Source: Lentisphaeria bacterium (lineage in GTDB: Bacteria > Verrucomicrobiota > Lentisphaeria > Victivallales > UBA1829). From it: 64,000 nt of DNA. Positions within the stretch are counted from its first letter, which is position 1. The number at the start of each line of letters is the position of its first letter. Location of the stretch: the NCBI GenBank assembly GCA_017963105.1, contig JAGCTY010000175.1, positions 51 to 64,050 of the forward strand, in the 5' to 3' direction. Position numbers and translations under genes: made by a program. A model generated the notes under the pieces. It saw only the letters and a list, made by a program, of their open reading frames with translations. It was not told the origin of the DNA and made no database searches. Below are positions 46,526 through 63,824 of the stretch, piece by piece.

Positions 46526-46609
46526 TTTTAGCTCTTTGTTTTGTTTGTTATAAGATTATCAACGAGTGAATTAGTTTTTTGAAAAATGTATTCCGCAAAA
46601 TATGGTGTT

Positions 46610-47032: not shown

Positions 47033-47110
47033 CGTTTATTCCCTTGAACAGCTATATGTGATTTCCTGTTATAGCAGATATTATTGGTGCTCGAATTTGC
47101 TGATCGCGGA

Positions 47111-48028: not shown

Positions 48029-48304
48029 ATGAAAAACACTACGCTTGATCTTATCAGTACCGTCCTGTCCAATGACGAGACCGTAACGCCGGAACACGCA
48101 GACAGCATTCTCCGCGTCTGCCGTCAGCCAGTCGTTCGGCGTAAACTGATCGGAGCCAAGGAAGCCATGGAAATTCTTAACGTCTCCCGTCCGACGCTCA
48201 GAGCCTATGTCAAGAGCGGCAGTCTGACGCAGATCAATTTTTCCGCCCGCAAAGTGCGTTTCGATGATAACGAGGTCAGACGCTTGGCTTACAGCGGTAT
48301 TTGA
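48029..48304 (+). CDS. excisionase / AlpA-like MerR-superfamily HTH DNA-binding protein
   Basis: 91 aa. KEAMEILNVSRPTLRAYVKSGSLTQINFSARKVRFDDNEVRRL matches the excisionase-type HTH_17 pattern, and the gene lies inside an integrative element. Confidence 0.7.
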   Translation: MKNTTLDLISTVLSNDETVTPEHADSILRVCRQPVVRRKLIGAKEAMEILNVSRPTLRAYVKSGSLTQINFSARKVRFDDNEVRRLAYSGI

Positions 48305-48596
48305 TCCGCGCGGCCGAGAGCGCCGCAGCATTCCCAGAGTGAAAGTCTCCCCCGGTATACTTTTTCAAAAGTCCGGGGGAATTTATCATAATAAAAATCT
48401 TGATTATTTTTTAATTATTACAAGTCAATACCATACGACAAATACAAGAACAATATTCTTTGATATTGTCGCAAAAAAAACGGAATCAGACGCAAATCGG
48501 AGGAAAAGATGGGGGTACGGTAAGGATACCAGTGACGAGGCCCATGGTTCGGGCCGAAGGATAAACCCGCCAATGGAAATATAAGGATTTATTTAC

Positions 48597-50012
48597 ATGA
48601 AAGACAACAACCTCCTACCAACTCCAACCGTCGATTCCCAGGAAACCACGGCCCCTGCATTTTGGAGATCTGTAACGGACGCGGATGTCAGGCAAGCAAT
48701 CTCCGGTTCCTACCTTGGCACGATATGCCACGTGCTTGAAAAGAATTACACACCGTCCGCTCCGCTTCCGCTGATCCTGTTGCAGTCGATGCTCCTGATG
48801 TCCGTAGCCCTGACCCATAAACACGATTATCTAATGGACGAGGAAAACGGTGAATGGGACGAACAGCCATCACTTCTCTGCGATGGACCCGAAGAATCGT
48901 TTGAGCTGGCTCCTGCTCATTTGTCGCGCCTGTATATCAACACCGGCCTGGGTAACGTCCCGAACATCTACGCACTGATTGTTGCGCCGTCGGGAGCTGG
49001 CAAGGGGCTTGGGAATCTTCATCTAATTAAAAGTCTTGGTTATGTGGAAGTTACCAATGGGAGCAGCCTGGAGGGGGTGAAAGACGCCGCAATCATGAAC
49101 CCGCATGTGCTGATCTCTCTTCAGGAGTTCGGCTTGCTTCTTCAGGGAAAAGGATACAAGGACACGTTCAAAAAGGGGCTGACCGACATGTTCAATGCCG
49201 GATGTTTCACAGATGCGCTTTCTGCTCGCTCACGCAAGGAGGTCCGCACCGTTGAATGGTTTTACTCGTCCGTGTACGCGTCTGTCCAGCCGGAAGTCCT
49301 AAGGGCTGCGGGGCGCAGTCTGGATATTGCCCAGGGGATTTTCAGCCGCTTCCTGATCGGGTATCTTTCCCCTCAGGACGCGGAATACGACTTCAATCCA
49401 TGTAATCCCGACCAGTTGCGTGACCTCCAGAAACTACAAATCGGATTGTGCCGCATCTCGACTCTGGCGGGTGTCGTTCAGGTCCCAAACGCCCATTACA
49501 ACACGGATTTTTCAGGTCCCATCCGCCCGCTTATTGATAAAAGAATGATTCCCGTCCTCCTCCGCTACGCCAACGAGTATCTGCCGCGCATCGCATTGAT
49601 GCTGGCGATTCCCTCCACAGTGGGAGATGTGGTCGAACTTCCCGAACTTACCGATGATCATTTCCAGCGCGCGACAACGGTTCTTCATCGTATCCTGACG
49701 ATGGCCGAAGCTGCCCTGGGCTCGCTGACCGACCTTGAGGGGCGCTCACGCCTGCAGGAAGAAAACCTGGGAAAGATGGCCCGTTTGCTAAAACGCTTGT
49801 CCATCAAGAATCCGAGAATTACAATGGCGGACATCAGCAGGTGTTCATCTGGTACCGGCTGGGATTCAAAGACACGCGAGGGGCTTCTCAACGAAATGAT
49901 CCAGCGCGGTTGGATTGATGTTAGTCATCCCACATTGGAGGGTGTGGAAAAAGTCGTCAAGGGTTGCTCCATTACCCTCGACAAAGGGGCTCTCCCGCCC
50001 GGAGTGCTGTAA
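48597..50012 (+). CDS. P-loop-like protein of mobile elements (possibly DUF3987-like, replication/helicase-associated)
   Basis: 471 aa with a Walker-A-like APSGAGKG. It follows an excisionase-type gene, as is often seen in integrative elements. The family assignment is from memory only. Confidence 0.45.
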   Translation: MKDNNLLPTPTVDSQETTAPAFWRSVTDADVRQAISGSYLGTICHVLEKNYTPSAPLPLILLQSMLLMSVALTHKHDYLMDEENGEWDEQPSLLCDGPEESFELAPAHLSRLYINTGLGNVPNIYALIVAPSGAGKGLGNLHLIKSLGYVEVTNGSSLEGVKDAAIMNPHVLISLQEFGLLLQGKGYKDTFKKGLTDMFNAGCFTDALSARSRKEVRTVEWFYSSVYASVQPEVLRAAGRSLDIAQGIFSRFLIGYLSPQDAEYDFNPCNPDQLRDLQKLQIGLCRISTLAGVVQVPNAHYNTDFSGPIRPLIDKRMIPVLLRYANEYLPRIALMLAIPSTVGDVVELPELTDDHFQRATTVLHRILTMAEAALGSLTDLEGRSRLQEENLGKMARLLKRLSIKNPRITMADISRCSSGTGWDSKTREGLLNEMIQRGWIDVSHPTLEGVEKVVKGCSITLDKGALPPGVL

Positions 50013-50290
50013 AAAATGGAGGGGGAAGTTCGGAATATATGCTGAAAGGCCCGAACTTTCCCGAACTACTCCGAAGATTACGACGATTTTTGTTCGTGGT
50101 CTTGGGGCGGTTCGTACAAGATCGCCTTCCGGTTGTAAAACAGCCGGAGGGAAGGCTTGAACTCCTTCGACCTCCGGGATGCCGGGCTCACTGGCACGAG
50201 TGCATCGGGTTCGTGTCAGACGCTCTTCGTTCCAGTTGCGTCTTTTCCTTGGCGGGACCTACATCTTCAGAACGAGGAGACGAGCATAGT

Positions 50291-51019
50291 TCATGCGAAG
50301 AGCGCAGCCTTGCGACCGTCCAGGCCGAATGCCCGGTTCAGGGCGAGGTAGCTGTGATCCACACGCTGCGGGGAATATTTCTTGACGATCTCCGTGATCG
50401 AGTTCAAAAGGCTCCATCGTGTCGGTTCTGCGAACTCCTCGTGCGAGGGCGACTTGAACTCGTGGAACACGGGCAGGATGTCGCAGGAGTTGATGACGCC
50501 AAGCTCGGCAGCGCGCACGATGCAGCTACGGGCTTCATCGTCGTCCCGTAGATAGGCATCTTTCAGCTTCTCGCTGACCGTTTCGACCGTGAGGAAATCG
50601 TCTTCGAGCGATGCAACAGCCCGGTCGATGAGTTCGGCCAGGACAATGCCGCTGGTATGGCGACGTTTGATGACGGTCGTGCCGCCGAAGGCCATGTTCG
50701 TGCAGACGCACACGACGATTCCGGCAGACAGCCCGACGGCAAAACTTTTGTCGTGACTGTTGCGGATGCCGATGCAGCGGTGCCACTCAGGAGAGGCTGA
50801 GCGTGAAATCTCCATCACGCCGAACATCTTCTGCCCGTCACGAGCAAGGCCGAACTTTTCTCCTTCGATGCTCCAGTCGTGCGCCTTGACGACCTCGGTC
50901 ACCGCCTCAATCACGTCGATGTGCGGCACGGGTCGCCAGGTGGCGGTGGAACATGGCGTATCGGTTCTGGCGACCTCGGCTCTGCTCACGAACTTTCCTT
51001 CCTGCATAATCAGTCCCAT
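50291..51019 (-). CDS. DUF932-like phage/plasmid protein
   Basis: 242 aa. KMFGVMEI...IGIRNSHDKSFAVGLSAGIVVCVCTNMAFGG resembles the conserved DUF932 core. Confidence 0.55.
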   Translation of the reverse strand: MGLIMQEGKFVSRAEVARTDTPCSTATWRPVPHIDVIEAVTEVVKAHDWSIEGEKFGLARDGQKMFGVMEISRSASPEWHRCIGIRNSHDKSFAVGLSAGIVVCVCTNMAFGGTTVIKRRHTSGIVLAELIDRAVASLEDDFLTVETVSEKLKDAYLRDDDEARSCIVRAAELGVINSCDILPVFHEFKSPSHEEFAEPTRWSLLNSITEIVKKYSPQRVDHSYLALNRAFGLDGRKAALFA

Positions 51020-51022
51020 GCT

Positions 51023-51814
51023 TCAGCCCGCCTTCCTGTGCGCGGCTTTGCACCGTTCACTGTAAGCACATTCCGAGCAGTTCATGCAGGATTCGACCGG
51101 AAGAAAGATGCCGGTGTTGACGACCTTTTCGATCTGCCCGGCGAGGTAGACGAAGCGGTCGAGGTCGTCCTGGTTCCTGTAGGTGTAGAACTGGTGATGT
51201 GCGGGTGCTTTCGCCTTCGTGAAGACATCGAAGCGGAACATCGGCATCCGACCATGGAGCTGACGGTAGGCGTAGCAGAACGTCGTTGCCTGAAGATCAC
51301 GGTCGGCTTTCCCTGCAGGCCACTTCATCGAAGCGGTCTTCCAGTCGCATATCGTTTCGTCCCCGCCGTCAGTGACAACGAGGTCGAATTCTCCGATGAG
51401 CGGCTTCGACAGTCCCGGCACCTCGACACTGAACGCTTCGGCCACGCTCTTGACCGTGTAGTCATCCGTCCATTCCGCAAGCGCCACATCGAGCATATCG
51501 CAGCCCCGCTGCTCCCAGAACAAGTAATCCTCATCCTGCTTGTAGGTCAGCTTCTCGCAGACCTCGGCTTCGCCTTTGAAGAACACGGAGAAATCTTCCT
51601 TGGCATCCTCGACGGTGTAGTCCGCGCCCTTCATTGCACGTTCGCTGAGAACGGCGTGGAAGGCGCGACCGAAGGGAATGCTCACGGAGGTGCGTTCTGC
51701 CTCGGCGTGCTCGATGTACCGGAAGTAGTAGCGCATCGGGCACGTCAGGTAGGTGTTGAAGGCCGAGTACGACCAGTGCGGTGTCTCACGGACAGTATCA
51801 ATGGAGCGTTCCAT
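51023..51814 (-). CDS. PD-(D/E)XK nuclease, Cas4/RecB-exonuclease-like, with a Cys cluster
   Basis: Start at ATG 51814 (MERSIDTVRETPHWSYSAFNTYLTCPMRYYF), with GGAAAGG 10 nt upstream. Blocks: GEFDLVV...ICDWKT (D...D/E-x-K) and the C-terminal CMNCSECAYSERC, with the N-terminal Cys in LTCP. Confidence 0.7.
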   Translation of the reverse strand: MERSIDTVRETPHWSYSAFNTYLTCPMRYYFRYIEHAEAERTSVSIPFGRAFHAVLSERAMKGADYTVEDAKEDFSVFFKGEAEVCEKLTYKQDEDYLFWEQRGCDMLDVALAEWTDDYTVKSVAEAFSVEVPGLSKPLIGEFDLVVTDGGDETICDWKTASMKWPAGKADRDLQATTFCYAYRQLHGRMPMFRFDVFTKAKAPAHHQFYTYRNQDDLDRFVYLAGQIEKVVNTGIFLPVESCMNCSECAYSERCKAAHRKAG

Positions 51815-51816
51815 GG

Positions 51817-52257
51817 TCAGGCCGCCTTTCCGTTGAGCAGGTCGATGGCGCGGCTGCACTGCGTCCGGCTGAGGTCTTCGAGCGCAGCCACGTTGAACCG
51901 AGCTTTCAGCTGTTCGATAGTGTAGCCGCTCTGTCGCGCCAGATCGAGCAGGAACTTGATCTGCTTGGGCGAGGCGGGAGCATCGGTCGCGGGCTTCTTA
52001 CCGTAGGCGGGCTTGTTCTGCTGCTGTGCGGGCTGCTGAGGTACACTGGTCATCTGCCCGGCATTGACGGTTTCTCCGTGCAGTTCAGCCTCCACGCTAT
52101 CGCGGACCATTGCGAAGGTTTCGTGGATGCGGGCATTGAGCTGTTCGGGCGTGAGGCCATCTGGTAATTCGACCTCTATGGACGCATGGTACGACTGGCT
52201 GGAATACTCCGTATCGGCCGGGACTTTCTTGCTGTAGGATGCGTTGAGTTTCAACAT
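51817..52257 (-). CDS. hypothetical protein (146 aa) with a Q/P-rich linker
   Basis: Open frame in a G+C-rich module, coupled to the downstream nuclease gene (stop 3 nt before its ATG). No family recognised. Confidence 0.55.
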   Translation of the reverse strand: MLKLNASYSKKVPADTEYSSQSYHASIEVELPDGLTPEQLNARIHETFAMVRDSVEAELHGETVNAGQMTSVPQQPAQQQNKPAYGKKPATDAPASPKQIKFLLDLARQSGYTIEQLKARFNVAALEDLSRTQCSRAIDLLNGKAA

Positions 52258-52333
52258 GGTGATTTCCTTTCAAAATTTTGCCCCCGGTAGAACATGTTCC
52301 GAGGGCGGTGTTGAGCGTGATGTGAGGCGGAGA

Positions 52334-53779
52334 TCAGAAACCGCTGGCGGTGCGGATTCGTTCGATCGTGCGCTTGGTCTGGACGTACTCGCGCTCCTTC
52401 TGGCGCTGTGCGATGGCGACCTCGCGGACCTTGCGGCTCATGACGGCAGATTCGTCGTACATGGCTTTGAGCTTAGCCTTCATCGCTTCGATGTTCGCGG
52501 TCAGCTCGTCCAGCGGGTTTGTGGGTTCATTGTTCGGGGTGATCGTCTGCGCGGGGGCAGACACGACGTGGGTGATGGTGTTGGTGTCGATCATCGTGGA
52601 TTTCTCCTTGGGGTTGTTGGTATTGATGGTGGTGGATTCTTTGTGGTGAGGTGCAGTCTGCGTGATTTCCGCGTGCTGTTCCTGCGGTGCGGGCTGCTGA
52701 GCCGTGGCTTCCTGCGTCTGTCGTTCCGTCTTCTGCATACGCATGGGCATGGCGACATACTGGCCGACACCGCCGCTCGCAACGAACGGACAAAGGGCAT
52801 CGCTGAACTCGATTCTCGTGTGACCTTTGCTGAGAAGATGCAGAAGGATGTCTTTTTTGATGGTGAGGGCGAAGTCGCCCCAGGACGAATCAAACTCGGC
52901 AGGGATGCTGAACTCGTGACCGTCTCCGTCACGCAGGGTAAGGAAGCCGACAGAATCGCGATAAAGCTTGATTCCGTTCGATGGGATTGCATCGGCCACA
53001 CTTTTCAGGAAGAACTTCAGGCGGTCGGCGTATTCCACAGTGAAGCTGACATAATGCTTGAGCGCCTTGCTGTCGGGCATAACGCGCTTCCAGTTGGGGT
53101 ACGCTCCGGGCAGAGCTCTTGCCGTCCAGCGCCATTTGCCTATCCTGACCGTGAACATGACGTAGAGGTCGTTGCTCCAGACAGTGATATTGCCCTCACC
53201 AGTGGTCTTCGTCGCCATGAGAGCGAACGGGAACGGAAGCGTGAGCTCGTCGAGATCGAACTTGTACGGGAAGTTGAACAGTTCTTTGGCGTTCATGGCC
53301 GTAATACCGTCCCGGCTGAGGTTGATGCCATTCAGAATGCTCTTCGGATCGTCCAAGTTTACCTGTGGAGCAGCCTGGTTCAAAACCTCGACGAAGTTTT
53401 CCGGCAGAGGCGAGGTCGTGACGGAATTGCCTTGCGGTTCTTCGGCTGTCGTCCATTCACCCTCAATTGGTGCAAGTGGCACATCATCGACATGGAGTTT
53501 TTCGTCCTTGAAGTCGAACGAGAGGTTCTTGTTCCGGCAGTTTCTCACAAGGGAGCGGAAGAAATCGAAGTCCACAGCGATCTTGAAGACATCCGAGATT
53601 TCCGTGTTTGCTCTGAACTCGATTTCTTCGGTCATGCTGTGCGTCCGGAAGAAAAGCGCGTTGCTGCTTGCTTCGATCTGCACGGCACGATACACCGGGA
53701 TCGGTGACGACCGGCAGACAAGTTTCCCCAGAGCAGCCAATGCCCCGACAAGTTCGGTTTTGTTGAGAGTCGTTTTCAT
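52334..53779 (-). CDS. DNA polymerase III beta sliding-clamp homologue with a C-terminal extension of about 110 aa
   Basis: 481 aa. The N-terminus LNKTELVGALAALGKLVCRSSPIPVYRAVQIEASSNALFFRTHS mirrors the DnaN start. YPNWKRVMP corresponds to the clamp FPDY..VIP motif. A Q/T/N-rich linker and a coiled-coil tail follow. Confidence 0.65.
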   Translation of the reverse strand: MKTTLNKTELVGALAALGKLVCRSSPIPVYRAVQIEASSNALFFRTHSMTEEIEFRANTEISDVFKIAVDFDFFRSLVRNCRNKNLSFDFKDEKLHVDDVPLAPIEGEWTTAEEPQGNSVTTSPLPENFVEVLNQAAPQVNLDDPKSILNGINLSRDGITAMNAKELFNFPYKFDLDELTLPFPFALMATKTTGEGNITVWSNDLYVMFTVRIGKWRWTARALPGAYPNWKRVMPDSKALKHYVSFTVEYADRLKFFLKSVADAIPSNGIKLYRDSVGFLTLRDGDGHEFSIPAEFDSSWGDFALTIKKDILLHLLSKGHTRIEFSDALCPFVASGGVGQYVAMPMRMQKTERQTQEATAQQPAPQEQHAEITQTAPHHKESTTINTNNPKEKSTMIDTNTITHVVSAPAQTITPNNEPTNPLDELTANIEAMKAKLKAMYDESAVMSRKVREVAIAQRQKEREYVQTKRTIERIRTASGF

Positions 53780-54147
53780 TTTTTATCCTTTCGGGTTAAG
53801 TTCGTTTTGTGCTCAAGCCATTTCTTCGCCACCCCGCATCCGAAGACGAGGAAGAGAATCATTGCCGCCCAGCGCACGGGCCAAGTCAGCACGGACAGAG
53901 AATCTGCGAAAGCTTCGGGGTTCTCCTTCGCCACGGTCTTGATGCCTTCCTCCACACCGTCGCTGACCTTGTATGCGGCGACCAGAGTTCCCGCCGCAGC
54001 TCCCCCGGCTGCCACTGTTTTCCATGGCACGACTACCGGCGTTTTGCGGGGCGTAGAGACGCGGTGACGGGACGGGATGTGCCTGTGGGCGGCAGAGGCC
54101 GGAACAACGCACAGAAGGGCTATGAAGAGCATTAACAGGCATTTCAT
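53776..54147 (-). CDS. small secreted/membrane protein (hypothetical)
   Basis: Start at ATG 54147 (MKCLLMLFIALLCVVPASA, a signal peptide), with a C-terminal TM helix. ATGA overlaps occur at both ends (54144-54147 and 53776-53779). Confidence 0.55.
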   Translation of the reverse strand: MKCLLMLFIALLCVVPASAAHRHIPSRHRVSTPRKTPVVVPWKTVAAGGAAAGTLVAAYKVSDGVEEGIKTVAKENPEAFADSLSVLTWPVRWAAMILFLVFGCGVAKKWLEHKTNLTRKDKK

Positions 54148-54866
54148 CGGAACGCCTCCCTCCGGCAAGCATCCTGACAATTTTGGACGGCTGTTTGCAG
54201 CAGAGCGATCAATTCTTCACGAAGCTGCGTTTGAGCTTTCCAGAGGTCATAGCCGCTCCATGCCGCTCCGCCTGTCGCAAGCACAACGGCGACCGCATCA
54301 CCGAACGGAAACGGGCCATCGGCCGCAGCAAAGGCCGCTCCGCCGCTGCATACGGCGGTGAGCCTTGTGATTGTGGTGCCGAGAACAGTTTTCAGCGCTG
54401 TAATCGTCTGTTTGAGGAAGACGGCTTCGATAGCGAGGCTGCCGAGGGCGTACGCCTTGATGTTGACGTAATCGGTGTTGACCTCGGCGAGGCTTTCCAG
54501 GAAGTTGTCGTCCTCAAAGTCAAGGCCGTAGACGTTTACGCCTTTGCGGCAGGGTGCGATGATCGGTTCTTTCAAGACTGAAGCCAGAAAATCCTGGGTC
54601 TTGCTTGTTCCAACGATCTTGTCCCGTGCCATGAGCAGGCAGAGCTTGCATTGCGTTCCGGTTTCGGTCAGCCGGTCTACGATAGCGGGGATGTTTCGGC
54701 GGGCTTCGTCGAAATACAACTGCGCTTTCGCGTCGAGGCTGTCGACATCAGCCTGCAGGATAGGGAAAGCTCGCAACGAGCACGAGCCGATGATGCCCAG
54801 AGAAAGGGCGGCGAGCAGTCCGGCAAAGACAAACGCCCTGCCGAACCCGTGATGAGGGTGTTTCAT
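54144..54866 (-). CDS. membrane-anchored hypothetical protein
   Basis: Start at ATG 54866 (MKHPHHGFGRAFVFAGLLAALSLGIIGSC), with GGAGGA 7 nt upstream; 240 aa. It is the first gene of the island's minus-strand operon. Confidence 0.55.
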   Translation of the reverse strand: MKHPHHGFGRAFVFAGLLAALSLGIIGSCSLRAFPILQADVDSLDAKAQLYFDEARRNIPAIVDRLTETGTQCKLCLLMARDKIVGTSKTQDFLASVLKEPIIAPCRKGVNVYGLDFEDDNFLESLAEVNTDYVNIKAYALGSLAIEAVFLKQTITALKTVLGTTITRLTAVCSGGAAFAAADGPFPFGDAVAVVLATGGAAWSGYDLWKAQTQLREELIALLQTAVQNCQDACRREAFR

Positions 54867-54971
54867 GGTTTCCTCCGTGTGGTTAATGGGTTGCGGACGG
54901 GAGTTTTCCCGGTCCATCGGATTATACCGCAAAAAGCAGGTGAAATTAAGCAGAAACCGCCTGTTTTTGTC

Positions 54972-55017
54972 AAAAAAAGGAGCAGCGCCCCAGTTTTTGT
55001 GACTTGAAGCGCTGCTC
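54972..55017 (-). terminator. rho-independent terminator after the reverse transcriptase gene
   Basis: On the minus strand, gagcagcgc pairs with gcgctgctc (9-bp stem extendable by UUCA/UGGG), followed by cttttttt. Confidence 0.65.
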
Positions 55018-55065
55018 AGACTCGCCTCCACAGAAGGAGGGAGTAATTCAGTTCAGGTTTCTTTC

Positions 55066-56514
55066 TTACAACAAAACACCCCGTTGATAGGCGAAGAAGT
55101 TCTTCTTGCCGATTATGTTTCTCCAGCGTCTTGTGCGCCAACGCTTTATGGCTAACAGTTCGTTAACTGCCATACCAGGAATTCTTTTGTAGTGGTTGAT
55201 GAATCCGTTTATCCTTTGAACGGCTTTTATCAGATAATAGTCGTTCTTGGTTTTCGCATATTCATACAACATAGAAAGATATCCTGCGCATGCCTGCTGT
55301 TTCTTGTTTCGCAATATATGCCATTTGCCGCGTTCGAGCTTTACTCCTAACAAGGAAATGTGATTGATTTTCACAATCTTCGTTTTATCCTGGTTGACAG
55401 GACATTTCATTGTCGTTTCGAGGAAAACGATAAGTTTAGCCCTTATTCTTTTCGCAGCTTGTTTAGAATGGCAGAATACGGTTACATCATCAGCATAGCG
55501 TACGAAGCGGTGACCACGACGAGTAATCTCCTTGTCCAGTTCGTCTAAATAGAGCATAGAAGCCAACCAGGGAGATAACACGCTGCCTTGGGGTGTTCCT
55601 ATACGATTCCTTGTCAGTGTGCCGTGTCTGCCGATAACAAGAGGAGTAAGAAAAGCAACTACAAGCTTTACCACTCTCTTGTCAGCAATATGAACACGGA
55701 GTTTCTGAACAAGACGATCATGAGGAACATTGTCAAAGAAAGCTTTCAAATCCATGGTTATCCCATATTGGTAGCCTTCTTCACGAATACGATTAACTTC
55801 AGCAATCGCATCAGCAACGCCACGTTTGGGCTGATATGCAAAGGAGTAAGGACTCCAGGGATTCTCAGGCATATTAGCAGTTACAGCCTGTAGAATCATT
55901 GTTTGTACAACACGGTCCATAACAGTAGCAATTCCCAAGGTCCGCATCTTTCCATTAGCTTTCGGGATCTGTACGGTTAGAATCTTTCCAGGATAGTATT
56001 TACCATGAAGAATATCCTGCCGTATCTTTTCCCTGGCAGATGGAGATGCAAGAAGAGGATCACAAACATCCTTTACTGTTCTATTGTCGTATCCGCAAGC
56101 CTTATTCGGTTCGCTTCTAACAGACGATAGAGCAAGGAGGAAGTTTCCATCATCAACGATTCGTTCCAGTAAGTCTGAAACTTTAACAACCGGAATTGAA
56201 TGAGAGCCCAGCATAGGATCATATATCCGCCGCTGAGAATACTTCCGATTGTTTGAACTTGCGGAGTAGTCACGATCACCATCACAGAAGGTGGTTTTCT
56301 GATTGGTATCTGATTGTCCGTCTTTTAGAGTGTTCCCTACTGTCGCATTATTTCCTTTCTTCAGCGGCAGTGTTTCATGAGAGCAGCCCGGTTGAGCCTT
56401 ACGAGTGTTACGCCGGTAAGCTTGGACATCTCGTAGATTGGCAGTATGCTTCGTGGCAGCAAAAGGCTGTGGCGAAGCGGGTGATATACTATTCTTTGAC
56501 TTGTCTTTTATCAT
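55066..56514 (-). CDS. group-II-intron-type reverse transcriptase/maturase (RT plus X/thumb, no endonuclease domain) with an N-terminal extension of about 115 aa
   Basis: 482 aa. Blocks: LLERIVDDGNFLLAL (RT0), RTLGIATVMDRVVQ, GTPQGSVLSPWLASMLYLDELD, the active site FVRYADDVTVF, and a maturase-like C-terminus (INGFINHYK). The AT-rich codon usage differs from the host. Confidence 0.85.
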   Translation of the reverse strand: MIKDKSKNSISPASPQPFAATKHTANLRDVQAYRRNTRKAQPGCSHETLPLKKGNNATVGNTLKDGQSDTNQKTTFCDGDRDYSASSNNRKYSQRRIYDPMLGSHSIPVVKVSDLLERIVDDGNFLLALSSVRSEPNKACGYDNRTVKDVCDPLLASPSAREKIRQDILHGKYYPGKILTVQIPKANGKMRTLGIATVMDRVVQTMILQAVTANMPENPWSPYSFAYQPKRGVADAIAEVNRIREEGYQYGITMDLKAFFDNVPHDRLVQKLRVHIADKRVVKLVVAFLTPLVIGRHGTLTRNRIGTPQGSVLSPWLASMLYLDELDKEITRRGHRFVRYADDVTVFCHSKQAAKRIRAKLIVFLETTMKCPVNQDKTKIVKINHISLLGVKLERGKWHILRNKKQQACAGYLSMLYEYAKTKNDYYLIKAVQRINGFINHYKRIPGMAVNELLAIKRWRTRRWRNIIGKKNFFAYQRGVLL

Positions 56515-56792
56515 TTATTCTTTCCATTCGGTTTGAAAGATTCTCTTCTACATTACAAGCGGTCGTCAATTGAAACATCGGATGGGAAAATGTCTGAAGA
56601 AAGATTATACGATTTGCATAGGAGTACAATTAGCCATTGTTCCGTCACATAGAATAAATAATATTACAGTTACAGAAAAACAATTAGCGCAACATCAATC
56701 ATGCAGTTATACTGGAACAGCATAATTATACCAAAGTAGAAAATGGCGATTGTTAGGCGAATAATGCTTGAAGCTAACAGATGTTCTTTGAA

Positions 56793-58319
56793 TCAAATCA
56801 AGCCATCCTCTCTCAGGATAACTTCAATTTTATCAATTGTCCTGGAGTCTGCCAGCGGGAGCGCATCTATAATCAGGCGTCTACGACAGCTCAATGGCTC
56901 TTCGATTACGTCATCCTCCGCTTCACCATTTCCTATTGGTGCGGGCAGAGATAAAGAGGGAAGATTCTCAATAGCTTTTTGCTTTGATTCCATTGCTATA
57001 TGAGAATAGTGTTCTGTCATCGAAGGATTCCCATGACCAACAATTGAAGCTACAACAGAATATGGGACTCCGGCGTTAGCACAGAATGAGACAAAGGTGT
57101 GCCGGAAAGAATGAAGTCCATACGCGTTTGCGGAATTTTTACGACGACCAAAAGTTTCTTCTTTATCCAATGTCGTTTCAAGTCCAGTTGAGCATCGAAT
57201 GATTTTCATTACATCCTTGGCAATTCCGCTGGGATTATACCTGTATCGTGCCGCGACATTTGGCAAAACGAAATCATCTTTAGTTCTATTTTCTCCGCGC
57301 CACAATAGAGCTTCATTTAAGGCAACAAATAAATCTGGAGCAATAGGCAAAGTTACAGCTCGTCCTCCAGTTTTAGTTGATGTTTTCCTTGGAATGAACG
57401 AAATCACTTTTTTGTCCAAATCAATATTATTCCATTTCATCAGACAACCATCTTGCCCGCGACATCCTGTATAACAAAAGAGACAGAGCAAGACTCGCAT
57501 TTCGTCTTTGAACATCGGAATGTATTCTTTTTTGACAATAACCCGTTCCCGCTTTCGTTCAGTGGTGAGGCGTTCAACTTCAGTTTCATAAAAGAAGCCG
57601 GTTTGGAATCCATCGAATATTGCTCTGACCTGTTCTGCCGAAAACTCTTTTCTTGATACAACCTCATTTCTTTTGTGCTGAATCCTATCAAATGGATTCG
57701 TATCAAGCGCAGCCGGATCCATTAGATGTTTGAAAACCAATCTCAAAGCCATAGCATATTTATTATATGTAATGGCGGATATTCCCGTGCCCCATAGCCA
57801 CTGCATAAAGTCGAGCGCCATATTGTGATCAACATCAGATATGAACTTTATTTCTGGATGATCCTTGGAAATCCATTGTATGAATCGCTTAAATTGTCCC
57901 TCATATTTCTTTGCTGTGCTGTCTGCACATTCTGTTCTGGTCGGCTGCCTTAAGAAAGTGTCCCAGGCAGAATGAATAGAGAGACCCGATTGCCTCTTTA
58001 TTTTTTTATTCTCCGCGATAATATTCGCAAACTCTTCCTTTGTTGTGGCGTGAAGTATTTTCTGAAAACCCTCAGCGGCCTTTTCTGCCTCAATTCTGTT
58101 TTTACAATGGGTTCCGTCCGGGTTCAGAAGCGGAGTAATGCTGGTTTTGCCCTTGCACATGCTTCTTAAGTAGAACCATTTCTTTACCTTCGTAATAGAC
58201 CCTGCTCCTTTTTCACGATAACGTCTACGTTTTCTTTGAGGGGAAGCCCAAACGGCAGTCTTGTTTTGTGCCTCCAGGTTTGTTGCACCATTGTCGGGGG
58301 AGATAGATTCGTTCAGCAT
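56793..58319 (-). CDS. tyrosine-type site-specific recombinase (phage integrase family)
   Basis: 508 aa. The C-terminal catalytic region reads ...TGCRGQD..., HSFRHTFVSFCANAGVPYSVVASIVGHGNPSMTEHYSH (the R...HxxR...H...Y pattern). It lies 160 nt from attR. Confidence 0.9.
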   Translation of the reverse strand: MLNESISPDNGATNLEAQNKTAVWASPQRKRRRYREKGAGSITKVKKWFYLRSMCKGKTSITPLLNPDGTHCKNRIEAEKAAEGFQKILHATTKEEFANIIAENKKIKRQSGLSIHSAWDTFLRQPTRTECADSTAKKYEGQFKRFIQWISKDHPEIKFISDVDHNMALDFMQWLWGTGISAITYNKYAMALRLVFKHLMDPAALDTNPFDRIQHKRNEVVSRKEFSAEQVRAIFDGFQTGFFYETEVERLTTERKRERVIVKKEYIPMFKDEMRVLLCLFCYTGCRGQDGCLMKWNNIDLDKKVISFIPRKTSTKTGGRAVTLPIAPDLFVALNEALLWRGENRTKDDFVLPNVAARYRYNPSGIAKDVMKIIRCSTGLETTLDKEETFGRRKNSANAYGLHSFRHTFVSFCANAGVPYSVVASIVGHGNPSMTEHYSHIAMESKQKAIENLPSLSLPAPIGNGEAEDDVIEEPLSCRRRLIIDALPLADSRTIDKIEVILREDGLI

Positions 58320-58480
58320 GATTTCTGTGTCTTTCTTGTTTAGGAACGTTTATGATTCTTTTCGATCCTTTACAAAAACACACAGCGTAAAACATTTTCT
58401 GCTAATTCTTTGTAAACCAATCGGCAGATAATAGATGCAATCCATTCACTGCAAGCACAGTGCAAAAATGCCGCACAGCG

Positions 58481-58531
58481 GCTCATAAACCTTTGGTCGC
58501 TGGTTCGAACCCGGCAGGATCCACCATTTTT
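58481..58531 (+). repeat. attR: displaced 3' half of tRNA(CAT), 51-bp repeat
   Basis: Identical to 43360-43410. The upstream sequence cannot form the 5' half of a tRNA. Confidence 0.95.
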
Positions 58532-58933
58532 TGCTTCGATCATCAACCCATATTCCGTTTTTTCTCCGTAATCTGAACTTATCCAGGCACAATTTCATTG
58601 AGCGGGCACACAGAAGCGAGAGGGGCCTTCCTCCGACGATCTTTGCAGAATTCCCCCCTCAGTCTTCCATAAAAACGTCCGCGAGACGGCATGCCGGCTA
58701 TCTTCCGCGTGAGGAAACACCCATTGGGGCAGCGGCTCAGGGATTCCTTGTCCAGCAGGAAAACAGAACAAAAAAGAATTGTCGTTTGCAAGCAGGTTTA
58801 CATTTCGACCTGGATGCAAACAGACTGCCGCTCGGGATACAGATTCCGGTCAAGGTGCAGCCATCTCCAAGGTCAAGGGGCACAGCCGATTAGGTCTAAA
58901 GGAACAACATTTTTAAAAAAACGGAGTTTAGCC

Positions 58934-58961
58934 TTGACATTTTGAAAACACGTGTTAAATT
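58934..58961 (+). promoter_or_regulatory. promoter of the 25-codon ORF (TTGACA-N16-TAAATT with TG extended -10)
   Basis: ttgaca at 58934-58939 and taaatt at 58956-58961, preceded by tgt. Confidence 0.55.
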
Positions 58962-59024
58962 AGAGAATAGAGTGGTGGGATAGCCACCAGGCCGCAACAA
59001 AAAACCGTTATCAGGAGGTAAAAA

Positions 59025-59102
59025 ATGCCGACATTGGAATGCGTTTCTCTCGAAACACAAAACACGTCATGCCACACTGATTGTGGACCCGTCAGCGACT
59101 GA
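59025..59102 (+). CDS. 25-aa Cys-rich peptide, candidate RiPP precursor
   Basis: Own translation: MPTLECVSLETQNTSCHTDCGPVSD. AGGAGG lies 7 nt upstream, with a consensus promoter 60 nt upstream and a perfect terminator 24 nt downstream. It is not in the ORF track (too short). Confidence 0.6.
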   Translation: MPTLECVSLETQNTSCHTDCGPVSD

Positions 59103-59125
59103 CAGTGCTTGTTTCAGAAAAAAAG

Positions 59126-59162
59126 GCATCTTGCCTGTAAAAACAGGCAAGATGCTTTTTTT
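59126..59162. terminator. strong (bidirectional-looking) rho-independent terminator
   Basis: gcatcttgcctg (59126-59137) pairs with caggcaagatgc (59144-59155), a 12-bp perfect stem with loop taaaaa, flanked by aaaaaaa and ttttttt. Confidence 0.85.
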
Positions 59163-59380
59163 GAACATAGTTTCTGCTTCGGAGCAGACTGTCCACGAGG
59201 CAACTCTTATGGTATTACGCCTGATCGAACATGGTTTGAAAAACAAGCAAGACACAAAAAGCATCTCTATGCAAGTGCTTCACGAACAGCGAAGATTTGA
59301 ATCTGCGTAGGACTATGTTGATTGTGCAGTCGAGGGCATTCCTATTCCCACGAACAACCGTGTAAGCACAGAGGTTAAAA

Positions 59381-60085
59381 ATGATATGCCGTTTTCTACT
59401 GAGTTTTCTGGAAATAATCGACAAGCTATGTCGGCAGGGGAAAAAAAGAATATGTTTCAACATATATATGGATTTTTTGAAAAAAAATGCATTAGAAGAT
59501 GGCAGGATGCAGGAGAAGAAAAGTATTCACTATAATCCTTATGAGGGGACAAACATTGTTCTTATTGAAAAACTAATCAAAAGCGGGGTCATTTCCCCGG
59601 AAGATCATATAGCCGACATAGGGTGTGGCGCCGGTATATTCCTGCTCTATTTGGCATCACGGGGTTTTTACAATTTGTCGGGTTACGAGATAGACCAGAC
59701 GCTTTATGAACAAGGTCAAAAAAACATAGAGTCTTTTTACTCGAAGCGAAAAGATTCAAGTAATAAAATAGAATTGCTCAACGTGGATGCCGTTAACACA
59801 GAATATCCTTCTGACATTACATGCTTTTATTTGTTTAATACTTTTTATGATAAGGATACATATCTTTCCTGGATAAAAAAAGTATATTCGTCTTGGCGTG
59901 ATAATCAAAGAAAAATAAAAATAATCATACTGTTTCCAACAGTCGCATCAATGGGCGCATTGCGCGAATGCAATTGGCTTCGAGAAACAGGACGAGTTAT
60001 TGACAAATCACATCCTTGCTGGCGATGTGTCAATTTCCTTGTTTATGAAACGATTGATGAAAAAGATTCCCAGATTCCTGTATGA
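59381..60085 (+). CDS. class I SAM-dependent methyltransferase
   Basis: 234 aa with SAM motif I, HIADIGCGAGIFLLYLASRG, and GAGGT 6 nt before the ATG. Very AT-rich. Its 3' end overlaps the convergent SPASM gene by 43 nt. Confidence 0.75.
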   Translation: MICRFLLSFLEIIDKLCRQGKKRICFNIYMDFLKKNALEDGRMQEKKSIHYNPYEGTNIVLIEKLIKSGVISPEDHIADIGCGAGIFLLYLASRGFYNLSGYEIDQTLYEQGQKNIESFYSKRKDSSNKIELLNVDAVNTEYPSDITCFYLFNTFYDKDTYLSWIKKVYSSWRDNQRKIKIIILFPTVASMGALRECNWLRETGRVIDKSHPCWRCVNFLVYETIDEKDSQIPV

Positions 60086-61270
60086 GGATTATATAGACAC
60101 CTTGGGTTTTTGGTATGCAAATCGTTTGACAAGGACAGCCCGAGGGGACGACAATCTTTGCATGCAAAACGAAATTCGCAATCTGCACAATGTTCTATGT
60201 TGGAAAAGTTCCAGCACCAGCATTTCTTTAGTACAGAAGATGATAATATCATATCGATGGAGGATTCGAGGATATTTCCATATGTGATGTTTCTCTCGAA
60301 TTCGCAGGGGAAAACATCACCATTTGAAGCGACTACAAGTTTGCCATGCCAGCATGAGTTGTTCAAACTGTTGTGAATAAATGTCTTTTTTGACGAGTGG
60401 AAATTTGGTTTCGTAATGAATGCTTTTTCCAGTGCTTTTTGATGATCCGGAAAATGCTTGTTTTGAGTTCCATTATATACATTTCGTATGATGTCGCATC
60501 GGGAACACCTCATACCCATTTTGTTGACAAATCCAAGAATGTCTTCTATAAAGTCCTGATTCTCTTTCATAATTACGACAGAAGCGGAAACTTCAACATT
60601 ATGTTTTAGCAGATAGTCAACATTCTTGCAGCGTTTTTCAAAACTACCAGGAACAGTTGTGATAAGATCATGTACTGTTGCATTATGTCCATAAACTGAA
60701 ACTTTCACGCGTGTTTGCGTAGCTATGATAGTTTCAAGTAATTCCTTAGACATAATTGTAGCATTCGTAAAGATTGTAACATCGACATTGAACTTGGATA
60801 CGAAGAGAAGAATTTCTTTCAAATCAGAGCTGCAACATGGTTCCCCTCCAATCAATAATAATGATACGTTCTGCATGATGTTGGACCAGTTCGCAAACAA
60901 CTCTTTTCCATTGTTCAAGGGATAATGTGTTTTCTTCCATATTATGAAAATCCCCTTCATAACAGTGGATGCAGCGCAGATTGCATTGGTGAGTTATTTC
61001 TAACCAGACAACCTCAAGATCAGTATCTGAATTGTCAGTATTTGTTATGTCAAACACTCTTGGTCTGAAGGTCCGACATAACAAGCCGTTATCTGCCAGA
61101 AGATCAAGATAACTGTTCGAATAAGTGTCTTGATGAATATATTGTTGGATTATTTCGCAGGCTATGTCGTTAACCGAATAGACTTTGCCGGAGACAAAGG
61201 AGTAAATAGCCCCATTTTTTGCTCCTTGGACAAAAACAACATCTTTATTGATCTCGAAAACGGGTGTCAT
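60043..61270 (-). pseudogene. RRE-radical SAM-SPASM peptide-maturase gene interrupted by a +1 frameshift (two overlapping ORFs, 61270-60824 and 60960-60043)
   Basis: ORF1 has a PqqD-like N-terminus plus the CxxxCxxC motif (THQCNLRCIHCY). ORF2 has LLLIGGEPCC..., then SPASM CWHGKLVVASNGDVFPC and CADCEFRFACKDC. The frames switch near 60861-60875, between ...CELVQHHAE and VSLLLIGGEP. Confidence 0.75.
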
Positions 61271-61272
61271 AT

Positions 61273-62895
61273 CTAATCCCTTTCCAATGGAGTTGATTTT
61301 ATGATTTCATCAAGTTCAGAGCATAACAACTGGTATTTCCTGGCACGTTGTTCTTCTTCCTGGATAAATGATGGCAGCATGGATTTACAGTATTGTAAAT
61401 CTGTTGCTACATAGAGGTGGCCAAAGAATTCTTTCAGTGTTTGAAACTCGATCTCTTCTTCTTTTTGGATGACATCCTGATATCGTTGTACTTTCCTTGT
61501 CAAATGTCTTGCTTTTTCGAAACAATGTTTCAACCTGTAAAACTGATATTTAATCTTGTTTGCAGATGGCAGAAAATCAGAACGAAGGAAATCTACAACA
61601 GGTAAAATTTCCTCGTTTTGGAATTTGTATCCATACACATTAAGGAAAGAAAAATCATCCCTCAACAGGCCATCCCTTTTCACAAATTCATACATTTTAG
61701 TTCCATACAACAGTTGCAAATGCAGCCCCCCATAATGGTAAAAATTAGCTGACCTCAATTTGCAAAGATATCTGTATGTCTCACATAGTCTCTCTTTGGT
61801 AGAGTATGGATTGATGGAAATGATCCCATATCTCGCCCAAATGCCATTCTCGGATAACAGAGTTATTGCATCTTGATTCTCCTGAAGCGTGGCACGTTTA
61901 TTGTAGAGAAGTCTGTCCATTTCGTTTCCGGCATCAACACCTATGAATAAATAATAGAATCCCGCTTCCGACATAAGTGTCAACAAGTCTCGTTTATCTG
62001 ATCTAATCGAGTTGGCTTTTGCGAACCCGGAAAAAACCAGATTTAAATTCAAAGAAATAATGCGTTCGGAAAAATCAACCAACCGAGCATAGTTTTCCTG
62101 GGAATCAATATCAAATATGTTATCATCTCCGAAATGGAAATCTCGTACACCGTATCTTTTTGCGACATACTCAATTTCATCAACCAGACGCATTGGTGTT
62201 TTATACTCAAAACGTCCTTTTCTAGAACAACAAAACGTGCAAGCCCCGTTGCAAACATTGCTTTTTGACAATAAGGAGTAGACCTTTAATCTGTTGTTCT
62301 CTGTGGTATCACTTTCATAGTAATCAAAGGCAGGATATCTGTTAATATCCGGTGTAACCCAGCGAGTTTTGTGATTATAGTCGTTCCGGGTTGCTACATT
62401 GGGGTCATGGAATTCCTGGTGCACATGATTGCCTGCATAAAAATCCATCAGTCTCTGTATCGGTTCTTCGCCGTCTCCAATGATATAGTAGTCAGCATTG
62501 CTTTCCGCTTCGATTATTAAACGATAATTCATGGAAATAAACTGACCGCCATAAATGATGACTGAATTCGTTTTCGATTTCAGAAAACGACTTGCGGCAA
62601 CCACTCTTTTGTAGTTTGTAATGAATACGGAAAAACCATAAAAATCGTAATCCAATGGGATTGTATTGCATATTTCTTCAGCCGTTTGGTTCTCATGGTA
62701 ATATTTGATCGTGACAAAAAATCCATGGCTTCGAAGATATGACGCCAGATAATCTACTCCATTGTTGCCATACTTGTGCTGTTCAATGATGGAAACAAGT
62801 AATATCTTCTTTACACTTGAAGATATTGAGTTGTCCGGCTGCTTCTGCATTTTCTTGTCCAGGAAAAGATTATTGTCTGACGGCTGCAAATGCAT
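61273..62895 (-). CDS. B12-binding-domain radical SAM enzyme (class B)
   Basis: 540 aa with an N-terminal Rossmann-like B12-binding region (KKILLVSIIEQH...VIIYGGQF...YYIIGDGE) and the radical SAM motif SNVCNGACTFCCS (CxxxCxxC). The start could instead be the internal Met at 62850. Confidence 0.8.
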   Translation of the reverse strand: MHLQPSDNNLFLDKKMQKQPDNSISSSVKKILLVSIIEQHKYGNNGVDYLASYLRSHGFFVTIKYYHENQTAEEICNTIPLDYDFYGFSVFITNYKRVVAASRFLKSKTNSVIIYGGQFISMNYRLIIEAESNADYYIIGDGEEPIQRLMDFYAGNHVHQEFHDPNVATRNDYNHKTRWVTPDINRYPAFDYYESDTTENNRLKVYSLLSKSNVCNGACTFCCSRKGRFEYKTPMRLVDEIEYVAKRYGVRDFHFGDDNIFDIDSQENYARLVDFSERIISLNLNLVFSGFAKANSIRSDKRDLLTLMSEAGFYYLFIGVDAGNEMDRLLYNKRATLQENQDAITLLSENGIWARYGIISINPYSTKERLCETYRYLCKLRSANFYHYGGLHLQLLYGTKMYEFVKRDGLLRDDFSFLNVYGYKFQNEEILPVVDFLRSDFLPSANKIKYQFYRLKHCFEKARHLTRKVQRYQDVIQKEEEIEFQTLKEFFGHLYVATDLQYCKSMLPSFIQEEEQRARKYQLLCSELDEIIKSTPLERD

Positions 62896-63097
62896 GTTTG
62901 ATTACAAATGTCCTCGATATTTGGGCGATTCCAATATGGCTGTTGAAGCTGTTGTCTTGTTCATAAGCACATCATTTCATTTTTTATCATTTGTGTTTTT
63001 GCCGATTGTTGAGTTGCTTTGTCAATCATTCCTGCAATCCGGACGAAAAGAACCCACAAAACAACCGTTGCGAAAAAAACTGTTCAAATACTAAAAA

Positions 63098-63220
63098 TCA
63101 TTTCTGTTCTGATTTGATAATTCTGATTGAGCGTTGTTGTTTGTGGAAGAGAGCATTCCGGCAACCATGAATGGAATATGTATCTGCTGCAAACTCTTCT
63201 GCCGCTCCCTGTAAAAACAT
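63098..63220 (-). CDS. 40-codon ORF in the leader of the radical SAM operon (speculative)
   Basis: MFLQGAAEEFAADTYSIHGCRNALFHKQQRSIRIIKSEQK, with GGAG 10 nt upstream. No homology was recognised and it may be non-coding. Confidence 0.2.
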   Translation of the reverse strand: MFLQGAAEEFAADTYSIHGCRNALFHKQQRSIRIIKSEQK

Positions 63221-63227
63221 AGCTGTT

Positions 63228-63290
63228 TCACTCCGAGTATGTGCACAACATCCCCTGCTTTCCTAAGCTTGTTCCGCTCTTGGTTTCCAT
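63228..63290 (-). CDS. 20-codon ORF, first after the operon promoter (speculative)
   Basis: METKSGTSLGKQGMLCTYSE, with AAGGTG 6 nt upstream, about 35 nt downstream of the predicted start site. Confidence 0.2.
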   Translation of the reverse strand: METKSGTSLGKQGMLCTYSE

Positions 63291-63333
63291 GCTATTCACC
63301 TTAAACGGTGTATCAACTGTATGTTTTCTCTCT

Positions 63334-63362
63334 ATTATAGCACCATGTTCATATTATTTCAA
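63334..63362 (-). promoter_or_regulatory. near-consensus sigma-70 promoter of the radical SAM operon (TTGAAA-N17-TATAAT with TGC extended -10)
   Basis: On the minus strand, ttgaaa at 63362-63357, a 17-nt spacer ending tgc, and tataat at 63339-63334. Confidence 0.6.
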
Positions 63363-63581: not shown

Positions 63582-63610
63582 TTGACATGAGCATGGAGCG
63601 AGGTTATATT
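63582..63610 (+). promoter_or_regulatory. sigma-70 promoter (TTGACA-N17-TATATT)
   Basis: ttgaca at 63582-63587 and tatatt at 63605-63610, with tttttcctgaaaaa upstream. Confidence 0.6.
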
Positions 63611-63647: not shown

Positions 63648-63824
63648 ATGAAACACAGCTTCTACGACGTCAAAACGAAAAAGAAAGTCCAGGCCGAAGT
63701 GACCAAGGCCGTCAAGTTCGGCAAAGGCACTCGCACTCGTTATGCGTTCAAGGCCCTTACGAAGGACGGCCGCAATCTGACCGCGTTTGTGAAGAAGGAA
63801 GACTGGGACAAGTTCAAAAAGTGA
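63648..63824 (+). CDS. 58-aa lysine-rich protein (possibly nucleic-acid binding)
   Basis: Own translation: MKHSFYDVKTKKKVQAEVTKAVKFGKGTRTRYAFKALTKDGRNLTAFVKKEDWDKFKK. AGGAGGA lies 7 nt upstream, a consensus promoter lies upstream and a terminator follows. Preferred over the 80-aa track ORF in another frame. Confidence 0.65.
   Translation: MKHSFYDVKTKKKVQAEVTKAVKFGKGTRTRYAFKALTKDGRNLTAFVKKEDWDKFKK

Follow-up and report, generated by a model that had tools for sequence, protein, structure and literature searches.

A probable RiPP maturation cassette of an unnamed radical SAM family, present as a decaying copy in AT-rich DNA of a Lentisphaeria genome

The sequence region studied here is a 64-kb window (the whole stretch of DNA analysed) from contig JAGCTY010000175.1 of a Lentisphaeria bacterium. 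Its right part, at 58.9-63.4 kb, contains a cassette block of four elements: a 25-codon open reading frame (ORF), a gene for a class I S-adenosylmethionine (SAM)-dependent methyltransferase, a split gene for a radical SAM (rSAM) protein with a SPASM domain, and a gene for a B12-binding rSAM enzyme. A block of this composition had been described in an earlier reading of the DNA (hereafter the original prediction), and all of its parts are present. The peptide gene and the methyltransferase gene lie on the plus strand, while the B12-rSAM and SPASM genes lie on the minus strand and converge on the methyltransferase. The features of the block are as follows.

58934..58961, plus strand: sigma-70-type promoter of the precursor gene, TTGACA-16-TAAATT with an extended TG, 10/12 consensus match
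58973..58989, plus strand: 5'-untranslated hairpin of the precursor gene, GGTGG-GATAG-CCACC / tggtgggatagccacca
59013-59018, plus strand: Shine-Dalgarno sequence AGGAGG, 6 nt 5' of the precursor ATG
59025-59102, plus strand: precursor peptide gene, 25 codons, encoding MPTLECVSLETQNTSCHTDCGPVSD
59119..59162, no strand assigned: bidirectional intrinsic-terminator hairpin, 20-nt arms, 95% complementary, flanked by an A-run and a T-run
59381..60085, plus strand: class I SAM-dependent methyltransferase, intact, 234 aa, motif I DIGCGAG
60043..61270, minus strand: rSAM-SPASM peptide maturase pseudogene, in the overlapping frames 60824-61270 and 60043-60960
61273..62895, minus strand: B12-binding rSAM enzyme, intact, 540 aa, CNGACTFC
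63334..63362, minus strand: promoter-like site upstream of the B12-SPASM pair, TTGAAA, 17 nt, TATAAT, with TG; a consensus match only

The 25-codon micro-ORF had been credited with a promoter, an AGGAGG sequence and a terminator of its own, and the signals listed above bear this out. Its product, MPTLECVSLETQNTSCHTDCGPVSD, comprises the leader PTLECVS, a spacer of 8 residues and the core CHTDCGP. All 15 loci examined have the ORF conserved beside homologous enzymes, and its occurrence is therefore far beyond chance. Conservation of a similar small ORF beside homologues of both rSAM enzymes had been proposed as a test of the original prediction, and such an ORF is found in every locus. Rfam gave no match at the gathering threshold, and only chance-level matches at E <= 1, either around the micro-ORF or in the 440 nt upstream of the B12-rSAM gene, and a riboswitch or other known RNA at these places was accordingly dropped as a candidate.

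In all 15 related loci the small ORF lies just upstream of the enzyme genes and encodes a TLxxV[TS] leader, a spacer of 7-10 residues and a CxTDC(G/S)P core. Two layouts are seen. In layout (i), found in L001, L002, L004/L166, L164, L165, L167, L170 and L171, the small ORF is followed by the methyltransferase, B12-rSAM and SPASM rSAM genes on one strand, and the flanks are unrelated from locus to locus. The peptides of this layout are 25-58 aa long (that of L001 is MPTLECVTNESEIIISCHTDCGPAN) and have TLxCV[TS], a short spacer and CHTDCGP in common, the core being varied to CVTDCGP in L170 and to CHTDCSP in L171. Every one of their genes has a strong ribosome-binding site and a hairpin downstream. 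When 8 peptides are aligned, the leader T, L, C and V and the entire CHTDCGP are invariant. In layout (ii), found in L005, L006, L008, L168 (Paraclostridium sordellii) and L169 (Romboutsia ilealis), the order is peptide, SPASM and B12-rSAM, without a methyltransferase, and the cores read C[LF]TDCGPS[ED]GCNPDD. A hairpin terminator separates the peptide ORF from the next gene in all loci, and homologues of both rSAM enzymes (45-53% identity) share contigs. Nowhere in the family, across the 15 loci, is a protease or an exporter conserved, and the same holds for an immunity gene. An intact cassette consists of 3-4 genes, which agrees with the earlier description of the cluster as minimal. The locus with CHTDCSP-type peptides, L171, has a third radical SAM gene directly 3' of its SPASM gene (5368-6417; 349 aa, Fer4_12 and Radical_SAM).

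A peptide profile made from 11 peptides, in an alignment led by a 47-aa family member, was searched against 5.8 billion sequences and retrieved 138 short proteins, with E-values down to 1.5e-14. Nearly all of them are unnamed, and the few that carry a name are called 'hypothetical protein'. Among the best 120 peptides, 68 have the core CLTDCGP, 30 CHTDCGP and 11 CFTDCGP. In 120 of 122 peptides, the V[TS] of the leader and the first Cys of the core are 7-10 residues apart. One precursor recurs on 141 contigs, and one of the enzyme clusters comprises 322 sequences. No Pfam or NCBIfam model matches the family peptides, even at E <= 10. In the paper texts covered by the search, supplements excluded, the core motif strings were not found in any relevant place, and topic searches of the same set on ranthipeptides, B12, SPASM and methyltransferases returned no description of the family. 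The earlier opinion that neither the peptide nor the gene combination belongs to a named class can thus be maintained.

The wider family includes SPASM homologues (35-43% identity) that lie beside peptides with the same leader and with CxPD-type repeat cores. The most universal element of these wider-family cores is C-x-P (CSPD, CNPD, CGP, CWPS, CYPS). In some family peptides more than one core is present, or there are additional CxPD modules. Single peptides with two core copies are P0245, with CHTDCGPANLCHTDCGPAN, and P0269 and P0314, each with CHTDCSP twice; in L013 (4686-4983) two different precursors are encoded side by side. The B12-rSAM gene is present in 15/15 CxTDC(G/S)P loci and in 0 of the other 69 of 83 loci scanned, indicating that this enzyme tracks the CxTDC(G/S)P core. 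It is this strict co-occurrence that ties the B12-rSAM to the peptide.

The surroundings of the Firmicutes loci L164, L165, L166, L168 and L169 contain DDE transposases, RadC, GmrSD and AAA_13, and also PDDEXK_9 ATPases, dynamin-like GTPases, an LXG toxin and VapE. These mobile and conflict-type genes suggest that the cassette travels in variable islands. More distant SPASM homologues (30-33% identity) in Sporomusa, Pelosinus and other Negativicutes adjoin tRNA-gene-like sequence, where a spurious ORF 'MERKTRFELATLALARRCST...' is read, at about 4650-4900 in L039, L041, L045, L048, L053, L056, L063-L065, L068, L069, L072 and L079. A peptide of the family type is not present in this set of tRNA-adjoining loci, and these distant homologues probably serve a different function.

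The rSAM-SPASM protein, when repaired, is about 408 aa long, and hundreds of homologues align with it over its whole length. It carries the motifs CNLRCIHC (CX3CX2C), GGEP, CX10GX4C and CX2CX5CX2C, plus a seventh Cys. The CX10GX4C and CX2CX5CX2C motifs had been read as a full SPASM signature, and among 25 homologues the rSAM cysteines C96, C100 and C103, the GGE and the SPASM cysteines C306, C322, C361, C364, C370, C373 and C391 are all invariant. PF04055 matches both fragments of the split gene, and PF13186 matches the SPASM domain with 32.7 bits (cut-off 21.5). The nearest solved sequences are SkfB (9e-26), CteB (7e-17) and SuiB. An AlphaFold model of the full-length enzyme (pLDDT 87.5) also best matches SuiB, SkfB and CteB, followed by anaerobic sulfatase-maturing enzymes (anSME) and PqqE. 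The enzyme reaches no curated NCBIfam cut-off, the named maturase families covered being AlbA, SkfB, StsB, ScfB/SCIFF, CcpM, CefB, PapB, WgkB, MftC and PqqE. Its scores against the respective cut-offs are 96/850 bits for AlbA, 90/625 for StsB, 76/650 for WgkB, 71/265 for MftC, 61/300 for SkfB and 59/381 for PqqE, and the ScfB, CcpM, CefB and PapB models match weakly. Membership in a non-RiPP family had been named as an outcome that would speak against the original prediction (RiPP, ribosomally synthesised and post-translationally modified peptide); with SkfB, CteB and SuiB as its nearest relatives and with scores below the anSME, AhbD, PqqE and MftC cut-offs, the enzyme is not placed in such a family. 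A scan of IMG/VR with the SPASM profile returned no relatives, and carriage of the cassette by phages was dropped.

The N-terminus of the same enzyme had been called PqqD-like. This part of the original prediction finds support at the level of predicted fold, where Foldseek returns RiPP recognition elements (RREs), and not at the level of a PF05402 match. In the predicted fold of the 86 N-terminal residues (pLDDT 86), four strands precede two helices. The best Foldseek match of this domain is the leader-bound lasso RRE TbiB1 (5v1u; probability 0.99, TM 0.52; E 0.09, which is weak), followed by 6jx3_B, a lasso B1 protein, and the CteB N-terminus. When the profile of the N-terminal domain was searched against PDB sequences, it gave only spurious matches to beta-propellers. 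Judging from the model, residues 1-60 can be considered RRE-like with moderate confidence.

The B12-rSAM protein is likely to start at 62850, which gives 525 aa. As predicted, it combines a B12-binding and a radical SAM domain with CNGACTFC: PF02310 scores 41 bits (cut-off 32.1) and PF04055 50 bits, and cysteines C215, C219 and C222 are invariant. No curated NCBIfam family cut-off is reached, whether RiPP or non-RiPP, including those of the RiPP C-methyltransferase models ApyD (45 bits/750) and TIGR03975 (36 bits/282). The sole solved relative by sequence is OxsB (E = 3e-4). In a library of 1.84 billion representatives clustered at 50% identity, the protein forms a family of its own, with 2 clusters above 740 bits, about 40 with E < 1e-80 and 602 with E < 1e-30; a scan of metagenome contigs with the B12 profile and generic patterns found only relatives at <=30% identity. 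The promoter-like site at 63334..63362 lies about 440 nt upstream of the gene and could drive the inverted B12-SPASM pair, as far as a consensus match can tell.

The methyltransferase in the window is 44-55% identical to the methyltransferases encoded 3' of the peptide gene in the layout (i) loci. PF00398 matches it with 26 bits (cut-off 24), other methyltransferase models fall just under their cut-offs, and no NCBIfam equivalog is reached. The His of CHTDCGP was considered as its target. This candidate was discarded: the L170 peptide reads CVTDCGPSD, with Val for His, yet a 44%-identical methyltransferase is kept in the same slot, which rules out a strict link between the methyltransferase and the His. 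The methyltransferase family has three conserved C-terminal cysteines, in ALRECNWL and then in C-x-R-C-V. Their conservation hints at a metal or cluster site, which would be unusual for a class I enzyme.

Compared with the usual family order (peptide, methyltransferase, B12-rSAM, SPASM), the B12-SPASM pair is inverted in the window. Inverted repeats flanking the B12-SPASM segment were sought as an explanation of the inversion, and none was convincing. A 4-bp tandem duplication, ATTG ATTG at 60849-60856, breaks the SPASM frame just before GGEP. The resulting 148-aa N-terminal fragment is found on 4 contigs (NCBI, Logan and ENA), and an assembly error is therefore unlikely. The nearest relative, L003, lacks the duplication. 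It is colinear with window positions 58899-62103 at about 85% nucleotide identity, the homology starting at 58899; the convergent layout is alike in the two and the flanks are unrelated. In L003 all three enzymes are damaged: the methyltransferase gene is frameshifted, the B12-rSAM gene is without its N-terminal half, and the SPASM gene is frameshifted near its start. The local duplication and the damage in L003 together indicate that the local copy is decaying, a possibility already raised in the original prediction. The local cassette is probably dead as well as inverted and frameshifted, and given the duplication in the SPASM gene no mature product is expected from it.

The peptide gene has fared differently. 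Between the window and L003, 3 of the 78 nt of the precursor ORF are changed, two of them silently and one with a Leu-to-His replacement, versus about 15% divergence elsewhere. The ORF with its Shine-Dalgarno sequence (window 59013-59110, L003 10266-10400) is about 96-97% identical at the nucleotide level and the adjoining enzyme genes about 85%. The 5'-untranslated hairpin and the Shine-Dalgarno sequence are nearly identical in the two, and the pairing of the terminator stem is kept in L003 through three two-sided (compensatory) changes. Judged from these two copies, the inverted lineage is one in which the enzymes decay while the peptide gene does not, and the peptide gene seems to have been maintained after the loss of the enzymes.

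By composition count, the cassette block (58899-63362) has 38.4% GC, versus 61.5% for positions 1-43328. The block is thus more AT-rich than the host, as had been noted; the AT-rich DNA is not confined to it but extends to 54.9-58.5 kb (42% GC) and 63.4-64.0 kb (46% GC). Host proteins such as AccC group at >=90% identity with proteins of Lentisphaeria metagenome-assembled genomes, and the relatives of the cassette are found chiefly in gut Clostridia, Negativicutes and Peptostreptococcaceae. The cassette is foreign DNA, AT-rich like its Firmicute relatives, that was acquired by the GC-rich Lentisphaeria host.

Taken together, the conserved precursor, the pairing of the enzymes and the peptide-maturase relatives support the RiPP interpretation of the original prediction. 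With good confidence, the block can be explained as a RiPP maturation cassette of an unnamed family, AT-rich in a GC-rich host, whose copy in the window is now inactivated. In intact members, the micro-ORF would be transcribed from its own promoter and transcription would mostly stop at the hairpin, giving an excess of precursor. As suggested by the predicted fold and the constant spacing, the RRE-like domain of the SPASM enzyme would bind the TLxxV[TS] leader, and this docking would put the core, fixed 7-10 residues downstream, into the active site. There the rSAM cluster would make a 5'-deoxyadenosyl radical, and the two auxiliary SPASM clusters would handle a core cysteine. By analogy with SkfB, CteB and PapB, the likeliest product would be an intramolecular thioether from Cys16 or Cys20 to Thr18, Asp19 or an Asp of the tail. 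PapB cross-links Cys-Xn-Asp thioethers with n = 0-6 (PMC9413430), and CHTD and CGPVSD would fit this range. The B12-rSAM, found only with the CxTDC(G/S)P core, may modify the heptad, C-methylation being the likeliest reaction, and the class I methyltransferase would add a methyl group to a heteroatom. The chemistry is thus probably a Cys thioether plus methylation, if the characterised enzymes are a guide. The family conserves neither a protease nor an exporter nor an immunity gene, so that its product may either stay and act within the cell or leave by general routes.

Several observations weigh against this explanation. The top NCBIfam bit score of the SPASM enzyme is that of the heme b synthase AhbD (116 vs 500), confined to the rSAM core. 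PF05402 (PqqD) has no match in Pfam searches of the SPASM enzyme or of 22 N-terminal domains, and the putative RRE leans on the weak Foldseek E-value of 0.09. The best weak matches of the B12-rSAM are BchE (87/481), a lipid B12-rSAM (83/360) and PhpK (61/600), not RiPP C-methyltransferases, which makes methylation an assumption. Transcription and translation of the ORF and modification of the peptide are predictions from sequence. The lack of an exporter or a protease is unusual for a secreted RiPP, and the cores of the wider family share C-x-P rather than a fixed pair of Cys and acceptor.

Comparison with known systems helps to position the family. Like the sacti- and ranthipeptide maturases AlbA, SkfB, CteB/SCIFF and PapB, the SPASM enzyme has a predicted RRE-like N-terminus, a CX3CX2C motif and a 7-Cys SPASM domain, and a short Cys-containing precursor with a conserved leader is encoded next to it. 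Unlike in the named families of this kind, it falls under every curated cut-off, its precursor motif fits no model, and the cassette adds a B12-rSAM, plus a class I methyltransferase in one layout, and does without a protease or exporter. The B12-rSAM resembles those of RiPP pathways (PoyB/C, the bottromycin methyltransferases, TIGR03975 and ApyD) in its N-terminal B12-binding domain, its rSAM domain and the position of its gene beside a precursor, but it lies far under the TIGR03975 and ApyD cut-offs and forms its own family. As in the PQQ and mycofactocin pathways, an rSAM-SPASM enzyme with a putative peptide-recognition element is paired with a very short precursor whose core is invariant, and no exporter is present; the cassette differs in having no separate PqqD/MftB and no equivalents of PqqB/C or MftD/E/F, and its core is Cys-based, whereas the PQQ and mycofactocin cores are based on Glu/Tyr or Val-Tyr. 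The likeness to anSME consists of the SPASM fold and a target Cys in a C-x-P context. Unlike anSME, the cassette enzyme has a predicted RRE-like domain and a dedicated micro-precursor, and no sulfatase gene is found in the cassette or nearby. The PADLOC defence models show only a generic rSAM and methyltransferase likeness (pVip 54-63, PDC-M51A 18-52 and mad2 44 bits), so that an anti-phage defence system was dropped as a candidate. The cassette appears to work as a sacti/ranthipeptide-type rSAM-SPASM RiPP pathway with an added class B rSAM, outside every named family tested, and the family can be described as an uncharacterised variant of the rSAM RiPP pathways.

Other fates of the product have to be considered. 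One of them, PQQ/mycofactocin-like in its logic, is that the CxTDCGP heptad yields an intracellular peptide-derived cofactor, metal binder or signal rather than a secreted antimicrobial. The 15 loci with no conserved protease, exporter or immunity gene and with unrelated flanks are consistent with it, as is a core that is nearly invariant across 120 peptides, unlike the typically hypervariable cores of bacteriocins; the Cys-His...Cys arrangement and the acidic tail might also bind a metal. This fate is nevertheless judged unlikely, in view of the absence of any conserved oxidoreductase partner or cofactor-dependent enzyme nearby, the location of the cassette in variable, mobile regions instead of metabolic operons, the large distance to the PqqE (59 vs 381) and MftC (71 vs 265) cut-offs, and the peptides with two or more cores or extra CxPD modules, which resemble natural-product precursors. 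The chemistry itself might also be different. Anaerobic sulfatase-maturing enzymes act at the C/S-x-P-x-R motif of sulfatases, and the SPASM enzyme might similarly oxidise the Cys of C-x-P to formylglycine or a related product, with later steps using the aldehyde, instead of forming a thioether. The prevalence of C-x-P in the wider-family cores and the good structural matches to anSME (TM 0.56-0.63, E about 3e-12 by Foldseek) point in this direction. Yet SkfB, CteB and SuiB surpass anSME both by sequence and by Foldseek E-value, the anSME model TIGR03942 gives 39-60 bits against a cut-off of 349, and anSME have no N-terminal RRE whereas a domain predicted to be RRE-like is found here; formylglycine formation is therefore considered improbable.

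Two further alternatives concern the micro-ORF and not the peptide chemistry. The hairpin terminator that follows the ORF before the next gene in every locus, and the nucleotide conservation of the ORF above that of the enzyme genes, synonymous sites included, would be expected of a regulatory leader peptide or small RNA that attenuates the enzyme genes, in which case the rSAM enzymes would act on a small molecule. The rSAM genes of the window and of L003, however, lie on the opposite strand, where the micro-ORF cannot attenuate them. Moreover, one leader is combined in the wider family with widely differing Cys-rich cores, as in RiPP precursors, the SPASM enzyme has peptide-maturase relatives and a predicted RRE-like domain, and no Rfam family matches, all of which leaves attenuation a very small chance. 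That the micro-ORF is a chance open frame in AT-rich foreign DNA might be thought of because of its very small size, there being 150 ORFs of >=20 aa in the 8-kb stretch; its protein-level conservation in 15 loci whose enzymes are 35-55% identical, and the 138 database relatives with E-values to 1.5e-14, rule this out for practical purposes. The RiPP maturation cassette thus remains the best explanation. A bolder version of it, which is offered tentatively, is that the CxTDCGP family makes a new class of peptide-derived product, the SPASM enzyme and the B12-rSAM acting jointly on the heptad to go beyond a simple thioether plus methyl group. The scaffold could then be a bicyclic or rearranged Cys-derived one that serves within the cell or leaves it without an exporter of its own, and the cassette a self-contained module of 3-4 genes that spreads through gut bacteria, across phyla included.

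The cassette is situated next to an integrative element. The block had been placed directly beyond an attR site, and the following two features of the element are in line with this.

58482..58532, plus strand: attR, a perfect 51-bp direct repeat of the 3' part of tRNA-Met (43360-43410)
56793-58319, minus strand: tyrosine integrase of the integrative element, adjoining the right repeat

The attR closes an element of about 15.1 kb at tRNA-Met (window 43411-58532), with perfect 51-bp repeats at both ends, and the cassette starts 367 bp outside it, past attR. The GC content of the element is uneven, being 51% in its left part and 42% in its right part. It encodes a reverse transcriptase of the group II intron type (55066-56514, minus strand; 242 bits vs a cut-off of 300), for which Rfam gives no intron match, as well as a DUF932 protein, a weak DUF3987 match and a protein whose N-terminus matches the N-terminal domain of the DNA polymerase III beta-clamp. 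An 865-aa protein at 43928-46525 (minus strand) consists nearly entirely of Sel1 repeats (359 bits, 10 stretches), and its gene is formed by 216-nt (72-aa) tandem DNA repeats at 43.8-45.0 kb, just inside attL. On the other side of the cassette, a 58-aa lysine-rich protein (MKHSFYDVKTKKKVQ...) is encoded at 63648-63824 on the plus strand, with its own promoter match (11/12) at 63582-63610. This protein is kept on many contigs, one cluster member occurring on 57 of them, and no Pfam or NCBIfam model matches it.

The window records the transfer of a module across phyla and the subsequent decay of its genes, in which the precursor was better conserved than the enzymes. Because the local copy is a pseudogene cluster, the practical message for the window itself is modest. 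The family, in turn, is a good lead for genome mining, with some unusual features, although it is not conceptually surprising. With at least 138 precursor clusters, this unnamed RiPP family is sizeable, and its centre lies in gut Clostridia, Negativicutes and Peptostreptococcaceae. Its unusual traits are the very short precursors of 25-50 residues, the near-invariant 7-residue core, the fixed spacing, the strict pairing of SPASM and B12-rSAM enzymes, and the lack of a protease or exporter. The short precursors, the fixed core and spacing and the strict pairing make the family a compact and tractable target for new radical Cys-peptide chemistry in the gut microbiome.

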